A stretch of DNA of 64,000 bases from an uncultured delta proteobacterium (GTDB taxonomy: Bacteria > Desulfobacterota > Desulfomonilia > Desulfomonilales > Desulfomonilaceae), in assembly GCA_963789265.1 (NCBI GenBank), contig CAWBKB010000005.1, positions 512,001-576,000 on the forward strand, written 5' to 3'. Every line of letters begins with the position of its first letter. Position 1 is the stretch's first letter. Shown piece by piece: positions 21,001-30,000 of this stretch. Position numbers: made by a program.

Positions 21001-24000
21001 ATCTCGCTTCATGGTAAGGGCCAAACAGACATCGTATAAGCCCTTAAAGGAATGTCTGCGTTCGCCGGCAGCCACCGGTACGGGAAAAGATATTGGCTCC
21101 CCCATTTGGGCAAGCTGTTCAGATAGATTTAAACAGCCGATGTAAAAGGCCAATTCGACTCGTAACATTTCAAAAAAACTATCAATATGATCGGCAGATT
21201 GAGCAAGTGCGTTGGCAACCAGTCTGATCCCCCTGTTTCTTAATTCCGCCACTGCGTTGGCACCGGCTTCATCCCGATCGGCGACATAATAGGTGTAAAC
21301 GGGAGCGCTTTCGCCAAAGATCCGCTCCAACCAACTTTGTCTTTTATCCAGTGGCTTGCGAAGCACGTAATTGGTGCCTTCGTTGCCTTTTCCTAATTCG
21401 GCACTGATCAAAACCCCCTGGCGAAATTTCAATTCCTTTAAATAATTTTCGACAATGGCGAAATATTCATCATCAAGTTCTCTTTTGATCATCGCGAAAA
21501 ACGTGGTAAAGCCTTCTGACTCAAATTTTTCTGCATGCTCGTCGGCAATATTCTTTAGCTTTTTGAGCAAGCCCACAAACATTTGCAGCATTTCTATCGC
21601 GCTATGCAGGAGACTCGAGGGAAGTTTGCTGAAAAAGCCCATCCAACTTCTTCTCTTGTTTTCAATTGATTCAATCGGGAGTTGATAGATGTCCCTGACA
21701 ATAGCCGAATTTTTCAGGCAATCCTTGAGTATGTTTTGGCGATAAATCAATGTATCCGGATCGGCTGAACCGCACAATACAGCGCTCTTTGCCACTTCAA
21801 ACAAGAATTTGTCACCAAGTGCCACGGCATGGAACATCGTGTTCAATTCCAGGTCCTGTGTTAGCGTTTGTTCATTCGACGGCAATTCCTGCTTCAGGTC
21901 GAAATCTCGATCTTTATACATAAGGAAAGCCTTCATGATTTTATGCGTTCCTTTAAACAACCATAAGTGATGCGATGCTTCTCGGCGATGGATAGCGCGT
22001 ATGAAAGCCCGTCAGCAGGCCTTCTCACAATTTTATATGTTCGCAATGCAGGATTTTCCGGGACAACCGTGCTGACCATGCTGACGGTTTGTTCGCCCAA
22101 AGAAGCCAATTCGTCGATGAATGTCACCCAAACGCACAAGGAGCCTAATTCCATTATTCTTTCCATTACCTTCTTGCTCAAGAAAACTGCGTCTTGTAAT
22201 GTTGCGGAAGTGAATATTTCATTTAGTATCAGAACGCTGTTCGGCGTGGCCCGGTTTAGAATATCGTGAACCCTGACCAGGTCTTCTTGCAGTTTGCCGC
22301 GGAGATTCCTGATATCTTCGCGCCTCTCAAAATGCGTAAAGATCCTGTCAAACAGAAAGAGTCGTGCTTTCTTGCCCGGCACTGGACAGCCCAAGACGGC
22401 TAGATAATGTAGCTGCCCGAAAGTGCGGCCAAAGGTTGTCTTACCTCCCTGGTTCGGACCGGATACCACAAATATGCGTTCCTTACCTTTCAGGTAAAAA
22501 TCATTACAGACGACGGACGAATTCTCGGTAAGGAGCTTATGCGCCAGGGCTAAATCAAATCCTTCATGATCATAAACTTCCTTGTCCGTACCGGAAAGCT
22601 GCGGGTAACAGAATTTCAACCCGGTCAACCTGAGCTTTTCGATATACTTTAAGTAGGCAACATAAAATTGTATTTCCCGGTCAAAGACGGCTATAGTTTG
22701 GTCCAGATAACCGCGGTTATGTTCGCAATAATTATCGAGATTTAGAAACACTTCGGGATATAATTTGGCTACGAAGTCTAATATTGCCGCTTCAACATGA
22801 TTCATGCCCGACCACATTGGGGGCTTGGTCTTGTAATTTTTTACGTCACCCTGTTTAAATTTTTCGAATGTTTTTTCCACCTCGACGCTGTAATCAATCT
22901 CAGATTCATACTTGCGCACCTTGACAGAGTTATCCTTAACGAGCATGCAATATTTTACCGTTGATAATTCGGCTTTAAGCTTTTTCGTTTCCGCCAGTAG
23001 TGACCCAAAGCCACCGGAGTTGACATAGTTCGTCGCGTATTCGCGGAACATCAAAAGGCCTCGTGATTTCAAATTGGCAAGGTTCAGATCGCGTACCAGG
23101 CTAGTAACGGCCTCGCAATAAATTTCTACTGCCTCCAAAAACCATCCTTCTTTATGGTACTTGTAGTGAAGCTTATCTTCCAGGGAAAGGTATCGATGCA
23201 TTGTAGTCATTTTGAGCGCAAATGATTCTATATTTTCCAGCAGAATTTCGTTTTCAAGGTCCTGTGCTATTTCTTGGCGGTACTTGATGGCATCGATACC
23301 ATTTAACGAAGTGTAAAAAAGCGGTTTTAAATTGTATGTCTCCTTACCGGCCGTAATTGCATCCACAATCTGATCGAGATTCAAATCAACAAAGAAGGCA
23401 GGCGCCTCAAGGATTTCCTCTTTTGCGCCGTCTTCAGGTCTTTCAAATAGTATGCTGTGGAAAGTCATAGCAAACACCCAGGGACACTTGCCATCCCGTT
23501 TGCCTTCGGCATTGAATTGTAGCTTGCTCCAATGAAACCAAAAAACCCACCTTGCGGTGGGAGAGTCTTTATTGCACGACCCGCCGCAATGTTCTCGCGG
23601 CAGGAGTCATCAGCCTGTCAGGCGGTTTGGGGGAACTCCATCCCCTCACGTTTCTTTCTTTCCCTACTTCTCTACTTTTTACAAAGTCAAGGGCCTCACG
23701 GAAATCGCCGCGGCTATATCATAAGTCAGACTGTCGGGTTTTTCGAAACTGGTTTACAAGATTCTACCGGCGCCCAGTCGCCACTACCTCCGCAACTTCT
23801 CTGAGCTTCCCTATCAGCAAGGCCGTCCTAGGATCGAGGTAATCCGCCAAGCCGGGCGGAACCTCCCCGTATCTGCGAAGACGAGAGCCTTCAAGCTCCG
23901 AAAGCGAGACCCAAAGTACCGAGCACGAACTCAAGATCATTTTCTCTGCAATGTGAACCGAACCGTCCAGGTTCAACGTGTCCCGCATTTCTCTAAGGAT

Positions 24001-27000: not shown

Positions 27001-30000
27001 GGAGTCTATCAAGGGCCTCTTCCGGAATCACAATTGGCAGAGTGGGTACCCGCTTCCTGAGCACCCAGTGAGGCCGCCGCTTCACCTCAAACGCTTCGGA
27101 GCTTTCCGGAGCATGATATGGGATGTTAAACAGCTCTGCCGCGGCTTTACGAATCGCTTGGATCAACTCGTCTGCTCGCTGCTGGTGCGGACGCAATGTT
27201 TCCGTCACATGCCGGCCAAATCCTTGAGTCACATCCTCGGCCGAACCTTGGAAGAATGAGGTTACCTCCTCTGCCAGAGCATCCATAACAGTCGCTTCCT
27301 TCACTTCCCCGTCTTTCATGGCTGAGAAAGATGCCTCCACTACGCTCTCAAGGTGATCTACGGACGTTTGCCGGAGCGCTTCGGCCTGCTGCTCCAGTGA
27401 TTCCAGCGTACGTTTTCTGTCACCGGTCAACAAATCTTGCGCGGCGACTCGCTGGCCTTCCGCATTTTTCAGCTCTCTTTCGAAGACTTGTAAGCGGCTT
27501 TCCAGGTCATCCAGGGGCATTTGCAGGGTACGGATCGCCAGCCGGAGTCTCATCACAACTTCTTCAAGAGCGTCGGTAACTTTTCGTCCCACGGCTTCAC
27601 GCAAAGCGTTCGCCTTTTCGGAAACGAGAAAACATATCAGATGGTCTTCGACCTCATTTAAGCCGCTCTGGGTCCATAAGTCGGCATCTCCGAAAAGCTT
27701 GGCGTCGAGACCGCGGCGTGAAGATACACAGAAAATCGGATGATCGTTTGTCACCTGAAGTTTTTCGGTGAGCACTTTCTTGAAAAAAGCTAAAGCGGTT
27801 TCTCTTTCATGCCCATTGAGGTAATCCACCTTGTTAAAGATGAAAAAGAGACGGGAAACTCTGGATCGGACCGCTTTCAGAAACTCGGCTTCCACTTCTG
27901 TGAGGGGCGGGTCCGCCGAGACGACAAATAGTGCCGCGTCGCACTGGGGAAGAAAACTGAGAGTAGCTTCCGTATTGTGCGTAAAAGTGGACCCAATCCC
28001 AGGGGTATCAATCAAAACGACGCCATGTTGGAGAATGGCAGCGGGGTGAAAGATCTCCACCTGAAGAACTCCAAGTCGGTTTTTCGGGTTGCCCTCTTCG
28101 GTGACAAAGCTTTGTAAGATTTCGGCAAGCTGTTCGGAGGTTTTTCCGGCAAATTCCTTCACGGGTCTTTCGTCCAGGTAGCAGACCCGGATTTTTCGCT
28201 CGGGACCATATTCCACAAAAGTTGGGATGGCCGTTAACGGCACAACGGAAGTCGGCAAAAGCGCCTCGCCAAGAAAGGCGTTTAGAAGTGTGCTCTTGCC
28301 ACGCTTGAATTGTCCCAATACTGCCAGGTGGAAGCGCCCTTCTTCCAGACACGTGCGGAGGGCGAGTAATCTCTCCCGGTCGCCGTAGAACTGACTTCCG
28401 AGAGATTCCACAATTCTTAACGCTTCGCCGAGGAGTAGCTGGAAATCGATTATAGCTCGGGAATCTTGCTCGTCCGGGCAAGTTAGCGTTTCTAAAGCGG
28501 AATTCTCGCCTATCTCGGATCTCACGATAAGCCCTCCTGTTTGTACCTTTCAATCAGCGGAGTTCCACGGATAGACGGTTGAAAATAAAAAACCCACCTT
28601 TTGGTGGGTATCCGCAGGACCGGTCTCCCACCGCGAAGTCTCCGACGGCAGGAGTCATCAGCCCGTGACGAGCATTTGGGGGACTCCATCCCCTTTTAGC
28701 CATTTCCTATTTTGTATAGCCACGGTTGTGAAAAGTCAAGGCGCAAACTTTGGGCGAATGCAAGCATTCACGTACGTGGGGCAGGCTTTCCAACCTGCCT
28801 CACACGATTGCTTACCGGCGAATAATCGGTTCAGATCAGCGGCCTCCTCATCAGAAGCTCAAGCGCTCGCCGGGCTGTAGCGGCGAGTCCCGGCTCCTCG
28901 GCCTCGAGAGCCAGCAATTGGCGGAGGTGATCCGCAGTCCGCAGGATCAGCATTGCCAGATCTCCCTCATCGGCCCCGATGTTGGCCGTAAGTTGAGCCC
29001 AATCCACGTCTTCAGCCCACAGAAATACGGAAGCGGCCGGCCAAAACATTATGGTTGGTGTGTCGAAGCCCTTGGCAGCCATGAACTGGGCCAGAGGCTG
29101 CAATTTTTGCATTGTGTGGCGAAATCTCTTCCAGAGCGGCCGGGTTTGGTCCCATAGTTCCCTGCTTATGAGAATCTCTTTGTCCTTATCCAACACGAAC
29201 GGCGCAATTAGTGCGGCAAGTTCCTGGGGACCCAGCCCGGCAAATTCACCCTGCCTTATCAGTTCCGCTATCAAAAGAGGATGATCCAACCTCAATTGCG
29301 CAGCCCATCTGCCGTCATAGGTTGGAACCCCGGCTTCGTCTAAGTAATTCAGTTTCTGCGAGCAAACTTGCATGCCTTTGAAATTCCCTGAGCAATCTGG
29401 AATGAACTTTGGCTGCTTGACGTGGATTCTCCCGGAAAGCGGCAAAAGACAGGCCGAGCAGTTTTCTGACACCGGCCGGGTCGTGTGAGAGCAAAAGGTT
29501 GAGCGTCATTGAGAAATTGACTGCAATTCTGGATTGTAAGGGCTCCGGGTCGGAAAATATCAATTCCTTTACGAGGCCGATGTTCAAAAATTTGCCTGGT
29601 ACCACAAGAGTGTAGCCCGCATTGTCCATGCCTCGCCTTCCGGCGCGACCTGTCATCTGGTGGAGGTCGGTCGCGGTCATATCCACGAACGTTCTGCCGT
29701 TGAAACGGTCGCTCTGCACTAGGACAACGGTTCGGGCAGGAAAATTGACACCCGCCGCCACTGTAGATGTGGAAAAGATTGCCTCCAAGTGCCCGGAGAC
29801 CATCATTTTTTCGATCAGAAGACGCCAGCCTGGGAGTTGACCGGCATGATGTGAACCGGCCCGACAGTGTAGCAGACGGCTGAGCTGCCTATGTCGTGCC
29901 AATTCCGGATAGCCGGCGAGTTGGTCTTTGACCGCCTGGGCGAACCCCCCGTCCTCCGGCTTCAATGGCGCCGGAAGAAGGGCCTGGAGTGCGCTGTCGC

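Follow-up and report, generated by a model that had tools for sequence, protein, structure and literature searches.

A dynamin-like GTPase of 608 residues lies directly behind a fluoride riboswitch in the window, the whole 64,000-nucleotide stretch of DNA analysed here, and most related loci, spread over more than a dozen phyla and including some methanogens, show the same arrangement. The GTPase is therefore probably a fluoride-induced stress protein. The features that bear on this are listed below in the order of transcription.

28642-28702, minus strand: fluoride aptamer 1 (RF01734; 41.9 bits, E 3.1e-08)
28582-28609, minus strand: terminator hairpin and T-run, expression platform of riboswitch 1 (stem 28592-28609)
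26699-28525, minus strand: dynamin-like GTPase of the BDLP class, fluoride-linked clade, 608 aa (Dynamin_N 2e-28)
25688-26428, minus strand: DUF6062-like Cys/His protein, 246 aa (ORF extends to 26677; CxxH, CxxC, CxxC, CRxH)
24225-25502, minus strand: second enolase, under the riboswitch (Enolase_C 2.1e-117, Enolase_N 4.9e-56)
23764-24180, minus strand: 138-aa helical accessory protein without Pfam family (family in 13/80 loci)
23594-23654, minus strand: fluoride aptamer 2 (RF01734; 56.1 bits)
23546-23561, minus strand: terminator-like hairpin and T-run of aptamer 2
19508-23477, minus strand: operon 2, comprising two ATPases with only domain V of MutS and a 272-aa protein of weak HAD likeness
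21933-23477 and 20428-21960, minus strand: the MutS-domain-V-only ATPases of operon 2 (MutS_V 1.9e-18 and 2.8e-24)
19250-19279, minus strand: promoter-like site near aptamer 3
19170-19242, minus strand: fluoride aptamer 3 (RF01734; 48.1 bits)
9834-18808, minus strand: operon 3, formate hydrogenlyase- or membrane-bound hydrogenase-like genes with an MFS transporter gene last
9834-11036, minus strand: MFS transporter at the tail of operon 3 (MFS_1)

All three aptamers exceed the Rfam gathering score of 34, and a genome-wide Rfam search found no others in the 6.06-Mb genome. This bears out the preliminary description, which had placed three minus-strand fluoride riboswitches at the heads of operons. 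Its distance of 117 nt between aptamer 1 and the GTPase, the first gene of operon 1, also holds; the other two aptamer-to-start distances are 117 and 362 nt instead of 126 and 383 nt, because the choice of start codon differs. The GTPase starts with a GTG at 28525, with AGGAGG 8 nt upstream. Between aptamer and start codon, the hairpin and T-run reported earlier were recovered, and the minimum-free-energy fold contains the hairpin. The stem consists of seven pairs, five of them G-C, and is followed by TTTTTATTTT. A copy of GGUGGG at 28627-32 could be an anti-terminator. When fluoride is absent, the aptamer's 3' tail would pair with this downstream GGUGGG, the CCCACC/GGUGGG terminator would form and transcription would end. 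With fluoride, the aptamer pseudoknot would hold the tail, and the freed GGUGGG could pair with the 5' arm of the terminator and permit read-through. In a crude scan, 32 of 61 related loci carried a comparable hairpin and T-run, none of them archaeal.

The Dynamin_N match of the GTPase reaches 100 bits (cut-off 27). No other gene of the genome matches Dynamin_N strongly; five further matches score 22-26 bits each. The P-loop GQFKRGKST and the motifs DTPG and NKVD are kept across the family alignment, and all GTP-binding motifs are intact in the window protein. Among proteins of solved structure, BDLP (2J68), Campylobacter DLP1/2 (5OWV), IniA (6J72) and the mitofusins match it best. The family profile matches BDLP with an E-value of 2.9e-47 and covers the G domain as well as the helical neck and trunk: profile positions 27-472 correspond to BDLP residues 47-518, and positions 523-590 to residues 615-682, the latter a weak match when taken alone (5.7 bits). 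A hydropathy scan of the protein detected no transmembrane segment (maximum over 19 residues 1.34). In the tip (about residues 485-535) there is a conserved PYWV..W motif with basic residues on both sides, and the profile alignment puts this region at what we take to be the position of the BDLP paddle. Judged by its sequence, the protein thus belongs to the BDLP/mitofusin class of dynamin-like GTPases and is either soluble or peripheral. Matches to the DynA (NF052648; 76.8 bits, cut-off 1600) and CrfC (the E. coli dynamin-like protein, NF007368; 32.3 bits, cut-off 1146) equivalogs stay far below the cut-offs. PADLOC matched the GTPase to LeoBC (2e-19) and LeoA (2e-16) and gave no match for the genes neighbouring it.

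To place the gene in a wider context, we collected homologous loci with two peptide patterns of the GTPase clade, which confirmed 572 relatives; the best 80 matches, a non-random sample, lie in 79 loci. With our own covariance model, 61 of the 78 assessable loci among these best 80 of 572 had an aptamer scoring 25 bits or more at a distance of up to 400 nt upstream on the same strand. Of the 21 aptamers used to train the model, 18 came from 13 of these loci, and those 13 match by construction. In six further loci of the 79 the aptamer lies 0.8-3 kb upstream on the same strand. Of the 79 loci, 13 were run through Rfam, and 10 of these have a same-strand aptamer immediately upstream that exceeds the gathering score. 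Six Chloroflexota loci that scored weakly or not at all have a variant aptamer below the threshold, in which the pseudoknot is compensated and which comes with a terminator of its own. Among the 79 loci, no aptamer was found in L021, L033, L044 and L054, and L029 has just a divergent one. In 61 loci the GTPase gene comes first behind the aptamer, and many of these have no other conserved gene there. Its neighbours (enolase, Na+/H+ exchangers, USP, DUF190, CrcB and MutS-like genes) are classic fluoride-response genes, enolase being the commonest (26/80 loci). In Chloroflexota and Methanoregulaceae loci the GTPase is accompanied by prenyltransferase-like toroid proteins and a small transmembrane protein.

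A phylum sample of 151 genomes gave 24 genes of the clade, all in riboswitch-bearing genomes; 20 lie no more than 600 nt behind a riboswitch and 22 within 5 kb, and the link holds down to 29-36% identity. For the clade genes of G114 and G080 no riboswitch was found on the same contig. None of the 31 other Dynamin_N genes in this sample lies within 15 kb of a riboswitch, which supports an association specific to this dynamin clade. Of the 74 riboswitches in the sample, 20 head this GTPase gene and six head CrcB. Since the dynamin tree is discordant with taxonomy, the cassette has probably moved horizontally, and related loci are therefore not independent. The cross-genome association claimed earlier was thus reproduced independently in both data sets; its extension across bacteria and archaea holds for a distinct clade in many bacterial phyla, while the archaeal members are Methanoregulaceae.

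The preliminary description regarded two proteins of operon 1 as orphans, a label that fits neither. The Cys-rich one has 510 database relatives, every one named hypothetical, and relatives of the 138-aa protein occur in 12 of 79 related loci (13 of 80 with the window). The open reading frame of the former spans 25688-26677 (329 aa, without Pfam match). Its start is most likely M84 at 26428, giving 246 aa, and homologues measure 235-260 aa. CxxH, CxxC, CxxC and CRxH are invariant in the family. The window protein has no Pfam match to DUF6062 (PF19538), and the homologue of L039 reaches 19 bits against a cut-off of 27, whereas a profile-profile comparison with DUF6062-like domains (hhalign) gave 60.7% probability and an E-value of 8.3e-5, with CxxH, CxxC and CxxH aligned; we therefore call it a distant relative of DUF6062 and not a member. 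DUF6062 is found in 16-27% of the members of the nearest Atlas clusters, and L043 and L055 encode dynamin paralogues to which it is fused. The 138-aa family is similar to the N-terminal domain of a second dynamin type that is likewise linked to riboswitches (hhalign 98.1%, E 1.2e-13, 142 columns), and elsewhere both accessory modules occur fused to this second type. What is new here is that the two supposed orphans appear to be a DUF6062-like protein and a counterpart of that N-terminal domain. Each stands beside the GTPase in no more than 11 to 13 of the 80 loci, so neither is an obligatory neighbour. The enolase between them is indeed a second copy: besides this Enolase_C gene of operon 1 the genome has one other, on contig C3.

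A six-frame search of the genome gave no match to CRCB (PF02537), while the control search had matches in 11 of 14 reference genomes; for a genome 95.57% complete with 6.07% contamination, CrcB is accordingly 'not found', as stated before, rather than 'absent'. The suggestion that a CLC protein might export fluoride is not borne out by sequence comparison for two of the three CLCs, those of 432 and 512 aa (the third is split), which resemble chloride-type CLCs: the former matches ClC (1KPL) with 1e-27 and CLC-F (6D0J) with 7e-16, the latter 1KPL with 1.7e-45 and 6D0J with 4e-13, and NCBIfam types it as ClcB-like. The puzzle of a missing exporter is softened by the MFS transporter gene that ends the third riboswitch operon of the same window. 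This transporter is 46% identical to a riboswitch-linked MFS of a Methanolinea locus. The genes of operon 3 match NADHdh, Proton_antipo_M, Complex1_49kDa/30kDa, Oxidored_q6 and MFS_1. The 272-aa protein of operon 2 matches HAD-IB with 2.8e-05, below the cut-off.

Within the GTPase class, BDLP from Nostoc punctiforme (PDB 2J68/2J69/2W6D) is the best solved relative, with shared ...KRGKST-type P-loop, DxPG and NKxD motifs. The window GTPase, known here from its sequence, is about 90 residues shorter, has just about 50 residues, with a PYWV..W motif of their own, where BDLP has its lipid-binding paddle, and differs in its fluoride riboswitch control and its own accessory proteins. The operon of IniA and IniC in Mycobacterium tuberculosis is induced by one specific chemical stress. 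These proteins (PDB 6J72) belong to the same class (E 1.3e-26), but their inducer is cell-wall inhibition acting via a protein regulator, whereas here it would be fluoride via an RNA switch; there is also no IniB-like gene here. As to the switch, the published fluoride-riboswitch regulon comprises crcB, eriC-F, Na+/H+ antiporters, enolase, pyrophosphatase, HAD, formate hydrogenlyase, mutS-like and USP genes; the window has the same switch and the same islands, and its enolase, MutS-like operon 2 and hydrogenlyase-like operon 3 belong to listed classes (PMC2864571; PMC11139923). Searches of open-access full texts and a term search of a 2024 review found no GTPase or dynamin named as a member of this regulon; the label 'so far unlisted', as had been proposed, is provisional and reaches no further than these texts.

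The riboswitch association can be read in several ways. The GTPase and its small partners might respond to the drop in GTP or energy brought about when fluoride inhibits enolase and switch a partner enzyme or transporter, with no membrane remodelling involved. There is a precedent in E. coli, where the dynamin-like GTP sensor RdcA is soluble, is recruited to the membrane and plays a purely regulatory role together with the accessory protein RdcB (PMC13463826). An architecture in which a dynamin-like protein without transmembrane segment comes with small accessory proteins outside the known families would fit, as would the frequency of enolase among the neighbours. We nevertheless consider such a sensor unlikely: most loci lack the accessory proteins, neither a diguanylate cyclase nor another constant target gene adjoins the GTPase, the neighbours differ between loci, and the CrfC and DynA matches are far under their cut-offs. 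The likeness to RdcA-RdcB, one of architecture, is further limited by different accessory families and by the lack of a DgcE-like target near the GTPase.

MgF3- or AlF4- complexes mimic the GTPase transition state, which opens another route: extra GTPase could replace poisoned copies, or a fluoride-locked G-domain dimer could be the active, assembled state. In favour of this, G-domain dimers of the dynamin superfamily gain stability from GDP-aluminium-fluoride, none of the GTP-binding motifs is impaired here, and the second enolase driven by the same riboswitch follows the logic of making more of the target. This we regard as very unlikely, as the genome holds no obvious housekeeping copy that would need replacing, no fluoride-specific residue change was seen in the GTPase, and stoichiometric capture of millimolar fluoride is implausible. 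That the GTPase is a passenger, co-located with an enolase and transporters that the riboswitch serves, for instance as a Leo/Eleos-like anti-phage system, is disfavoured and hardly credible. Dynamin-like proteins do occur in defence systems, but the PADLOC likeness of the GTPase is at superfamily level and does not extend to the accessory proteins; moreover, a passenger would not be expected to follow the aptamer directly in 61 loci, often as the sole conserved gene, nor to keep this link to about 30% identity while 31 other dynamin genes lack it.

Studied proteins of the BDLP/mitofusin class act on membranes, and by analogy we lean slightly towards the view that a riboswitch-induced BDLP-class GTPase acts at the cytoplasmic membrane with two accessory proteins. 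Fluoride would turn on the operon headed by the GTPase, which may then maintain or repair the barrier that excludes fluoride, probably together with the DUF6062-like Cys/His protein and the 138-aa helical protein; membrane repair or remodelling, as the preliminary description had it, is thus suggested by what its relatives do. CrcB is rarer in genomes carrying the GTPase (4/24 versus 61/127 others) and in those carrying the MFS family (3/31 versus 62/120 others), counts that are uncorrected for relatedness. For this reason it may be speculated, with considerable doubt, that the GTPase works with its two accessory modules as a membrane barrier or repair machine triggered by fluoride, mainly in CrcB-less anaerobes, and that the MFS family of these islands is a third kind of fluoride exporter. 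In Methanoregulaceae and over a dozen phyla of bacteria, selection appears to have kept the GTPase clade behind fluoride riboswitches, which would make it a true and common part of the response to fluoride stress.

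The window carries three fluoride riboswitches, each standing before a minus-strand gene row as the preliminary description had stated, and all three exceed the gathering score of the Rfam fluoride model RF01734 (34 bits). An Rfam search of the whole 6.06-Mb assembly returned these three aptamers alone. They and the genes behind them are:

28642-28702, minus: fluoride aptamer 1 (RF01734, 41.9 bits)
26699-28525, minus: row 1, 608-aa Dynamin_N protein (the GTPase)
25688-26677, minus: row 1, Cys-rich ORF
24225-25502, minus: row 1, enolase
23764-24180, minus: row 1, 138-aa protein
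23594-23654, minus: fluoride aptamer 2 (RF01734, 56.1 bits)
19508-23477, minus: row 2, two MutS-domain-V-only proteins and a weakly HAD-like protein
19170-19242, minus: fluoride aptamer 3 (RF01734, 48.1 bits)
behind aptamer 3, minus: row 3, formate hydrogenlyase- or membrane-bound hydrogenase-like genes
9834-11036, minus: end of row 3, MFS transporter, then on the same strand a cNMP-binding protein, a ferredoxin and a NUDIX hydrolase

Two earlier publications list enolase, MutS-like genes and formate hydrogenlyase among the companions of fluoride riboswitches (PMC2864571; PMC11139923). The HycD/NADHdh-like first gene behind riboswitch 3 (17836-18808, minus) is seemingly split into overlapping ORFs (18386-18808 and 17836-18459) that match separate parts of the Pfam model, which may reflect a frameshift or an assembly error. 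Both MutS-domain-V-only proteins of row 2 match the NCBIfam model KamC (lysine 5,6-aminomutase reactivase ATPase); the matches (1.1e-23 and 3.9e-11) lie below the KamC cut-off and hint that the pair may be chaperone- or reactivase-type ATPases and not DNA repair proteins. The roughly 270 nt that separate the GTPase stop from the probable start codon of the Cys-rich gene (26429-26698, minus) hold two G+C-rich hairpins without T-runs. Part of the window was contained in four of the five DNA metagenome runs listed (two studies), and no RNA run carrying a stretch of it was among the sequencing runs listed.

Downstream of aptamer 1 and ahead of the GTG start codon of the GTPase gene, which has AGGAGG 8 nt upstream, we located the terminator-like hairpin described before, ACCCACC-AAAA-GGUGGGU followed by a T-run; riboswitch 2 has a near-identical hairpin. 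In the minimum-free-energy fold the terminator is formed and the 3' tail of aptamer 1 is paired with a GGUGGG-containing segment (28625-28634) that repeats the 3' arm of the terminator. Fluoride would keep the aptamer tail in the pseudoknot and release the GGUGGG segment, which could then pair with the 5' arm of the terminator to give the ON state. From this modelled folding we infer that riboswitch 1 probably uses the usual ON logic.

The GTPase scores 100 bits against Pfam Dynamin_N (cut-off 27), and no transmembrane segment was found in it. Its closest solved relatives by sequence are the bacterial dynamin-like protein BDLP of Nostoc (2J68), Campylobacter DLP1/2, IniA and the mitofusins, and it scores far below the cut-offs of the NCBIfam equivalogs DynA and CrfC. 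A profile built on 74 members of the family gave a match to BDLP at 2.9e-47: positions 27-472 correspond to BDLP 47-518 and span the G domain together with the helical neck and trunk, and positions 523-590 match weakly the C-terminal helices (BDLP 615-682). Residues ~485-535 of the GTPase, which presumably occupy the position of the lipid-binding paddle of BDLP, form a stretch of half the length found there, with a conserved PYWV..W motif and basic residues on its flanks.

To follow the riboswitch association beyond the window, relatives were collected by a pattern scan with one genome per species, which confirmed 572 of them; the best 80 of these matches, in 79 loci, were kept. Rfam, applied to 13 of the loci, found in ten of them a same-strand aptamer immediately ahead of the gene that passed the gathering score; the other three had an aptamer 770 nt upstream, a divergent aptamer only and none at threshold, respectively. 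All 79 loci (848 kb) were then searched with a covariance model trained on 21 aptamers, and the hits were tallied by script; the model's matches hold by construction in the 13 training loci and are independent of training in the other 66. One locus that starts at a contig end was left out. Among the 78 assessable best-match loci, 61 carry a same-strand aptamer of at least 25 bits no more than 400 nt upstream, which bears out the claim that fluoride aptamers precede homologues of this GTPase. The remainder comprises six loci with a same-strand aptamer 0.8-3 kb upstream, two with a weak one, one with a divergent one only and eight with none. In these loci, as in the window, the aptamer is usually followed directly by the GTPase gene.

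Chloroflexota loci scored as weak or 'none' could be taken to break this rule, a reading that we rejected, since they carry a variant fluoride aptamer below the Rfam threshold. It comes with a terminator of its own, and its pseudoknot is altered on both sides (GAAGC with GCUUC). Its Rfam scores of 22.8-34.2 bits lie mostly below the gathering score, so that standard annotation overlooks it. The variant stands directly ahead of the GTPase in four Chloroflexota loci and, in two others, ahead of a prenyltransferase-like gene that itself precedes the GTPase. The copies, in locus coordinates, are:

L039: 5810-5885 and 4824-4899, variant aptamers
L042: 5810-5885, variant aptamer
L047: about 5899-5985, variant aptamer with an inserted hairpin, recognisable only by eye
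L056: 173-251 and 1209-1285, variant aptamers
L045: 3089-3167, variant aptamer
L079: 4035-4110 and 4965-5041, variant aptamers

After re-inspection of the weak and 'none' loci, four (L021, L033, L044 and L054) were still without an aptamer.

As a control for specificity we used 151 evenly drawn genomes of the Desulfobacterota, which contain 74 riboswitches above the cut-off, in 56 genomes. The GTPase has 24 matching genes there at E 1e-10 or better, all in riboswitch-bearing genomes; a riboswitch lies within 600 nt ahead of 20 and within 5 kb of 22, and the link persists where identity falls to 29-36%. The sample has 55 Dynamin_N genes at E 1e-11 or better: 22 of the 24 clade members among them are linked in this way, compared with none of the other 31 (mostly 670-860 aa) within 15 kb. 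A riboswitch lies ahead of 6 of the sample's 67 CrcB genes within 600 nt, and of 11 within 5 kb. The GTPase thus heads 20 of the 74 riboswitch operons versus 6 for CrcB, and is the more frequent gene directly behind the switch in this sample (20 versus 6 within 600 nt). Membership of the GTPase in the fluoride regulon is well supported. A FastTree phylogeny of 77 proteins with SH-like supports separated the main GTPase clade (71 rows, support 95) from two paralogue types, united the seven archaeal rows in a single clade and scattered the rows without a riboswitch as singles. Its branching departs from taxonomy; the cassette therefore seems to pass from one lineage to another, and the loci should not be counted as independent.

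We clustered the ORFs of the window and of all 79 loci after crude gene calling. Out of 80 loci, enolase was present in 26, one MFS family in 22, Na+/H+ exchangers in 18 and 5, USP in 16, the 138-aa family in 13, the Cys-rich family in 11, a prenyltransferase-like toroid protein in 10, DUF190 in 8, MutS-V proteins in 7 and CrcB in 6. The toroid protein (~272-300 aa; alpha-alpha toroid domain PF00432, 5.4e-14) is a neighbour of the GTPase in loci from Chloroflexota and Methanoregulaceae, its gene being upstream in L056 (329-1147), L039, L042, L045 and L079 and downstream in L057, L061 and L075.

The Cys-rich and 138-aa proteins had been called orphans, a label that fits neither. The Cys-rich protein, which most likely starts at M84 (246 aa), has 510 relatives, every one unnamed, with invariant CxxH, CxxC, CxxC and CRxH motifs. 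It falls below the Pfam cut-off for DUF6062 and shows a distant likeness to DUF6062-like proteins (hhalign 60.7%, E 8.3e-5, motifs aligned); DUF6062 occurs in 16-27% of the members of its Atlas neighbour clusters, and no mention of DUF6062 was found in the open-access full-text literature. The 138-aa family, beyond its occurrence in 13 of 80 loci, shares homology with the N-terminal domain of a second, larger dynamin type in L026, L031 and L029 (hhalign 98.1%, E 1.2e-13), a relationship visible by family profile only; a BLASTP comparison of the 138-aa protein with the L026 paralogue found no match. The larger type has either this N-terminal domain or a C-terminal DUF6062 domain, a clear one in L043 and L055, and is itself riboswitch-linked in most of the following loci:

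L026: 2119-4194, minus, second dynamin type
L031: 2007-4067, minus, second dynamin type
L029: 1501-3402, minus, second dynamin type
L067: second dynamin type, paralogue
L043: 1970-4825, minus, second dynamin type
L055: 11472-13547, plus, second dynamin type

In the Methanoregula loci L026 and L031 the paralogue follows enolase, behind a second, divergent riboswitch. The fusion of both small-protein domains to the second dynamin type argues that the GTPase, the Cys-rich protein and the 138-aa protein may work together.

A search for CRCB gave no match in the genome, in agreement with the earlier observation. A CLC protein had been proposed as a possible fluoride exporter. The genome has a split third CLC copy besides the two that were compared, and those two resemble chloride-type CLCs more closely than the solved CLC-F. 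For the 400-aa MFS transporter at the end of row 3, no solved relative came up at E 0.01 or better; its family is the one counted in 22 of the 80 loci and occurs in 31 of the 151 sampled genomes. CrcB was found in 4 of 24 GTPase-carrying genomes versus 61 of 127 others (Fisher p 0.006), and in 3 of 31 MFS-carrying genomes versus 62 of 120 others (Fisher p 1e-5). As these tests are uncorrected for relatedness, we treat both anti-correlations as leads only; the MFS family is a candidate substitute fluoride exporter in genomes without CrcB.

For the GTPase itself we favour a role in membrane maintenance or repair, because studied proteins of the BDLP/mitofusin class act on membranes, because the tip motif looks, from its sequence, like an interfacial anchor, and because lipid-related and small membrane proteins are encoded beside the GTPase gene in some lineages. 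A further reason is the reported upregulation of genes for membrane structure and integrity under fluoride (PMC11139923). The main rival is that the protein could be a regulatory GTP sensor by analogy with RdcA-RdcB (PMC13463826). Fluoride trapping of the GTPase seems less likely, as does a defence role, to which PADLOC Leo matches of the protein point.

No report tying a dynamin or GTPase to a fluoride riboswitch was found in open-access full texts, a scope outside which Baker 2012 and its supplement lie, and a term search of a 2024 review gave no mention of GTP, dynamin, MutS or MFS. As these searches yielded no relevant precedent, we rate both the dynamin-like clade and the class that it forms within the known fluoride regulon as new; there is a real chance that the bare riboswitch-GTPase association has been tabulated before.

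To our knowledge, few bacterial dynamin-like proteins have a known physiological trigger. A whole clade tied to a single, simple inorganic inducer would allow such a protein to be turned on cleanly and its phenotype to be sought. Two uncharacterised protein families gain a first functional context, and fluoride biology gains a frequent response gene, one that points to membrane or GTP-linked effects of fluoride stress in addition to export, pH control and enolase.
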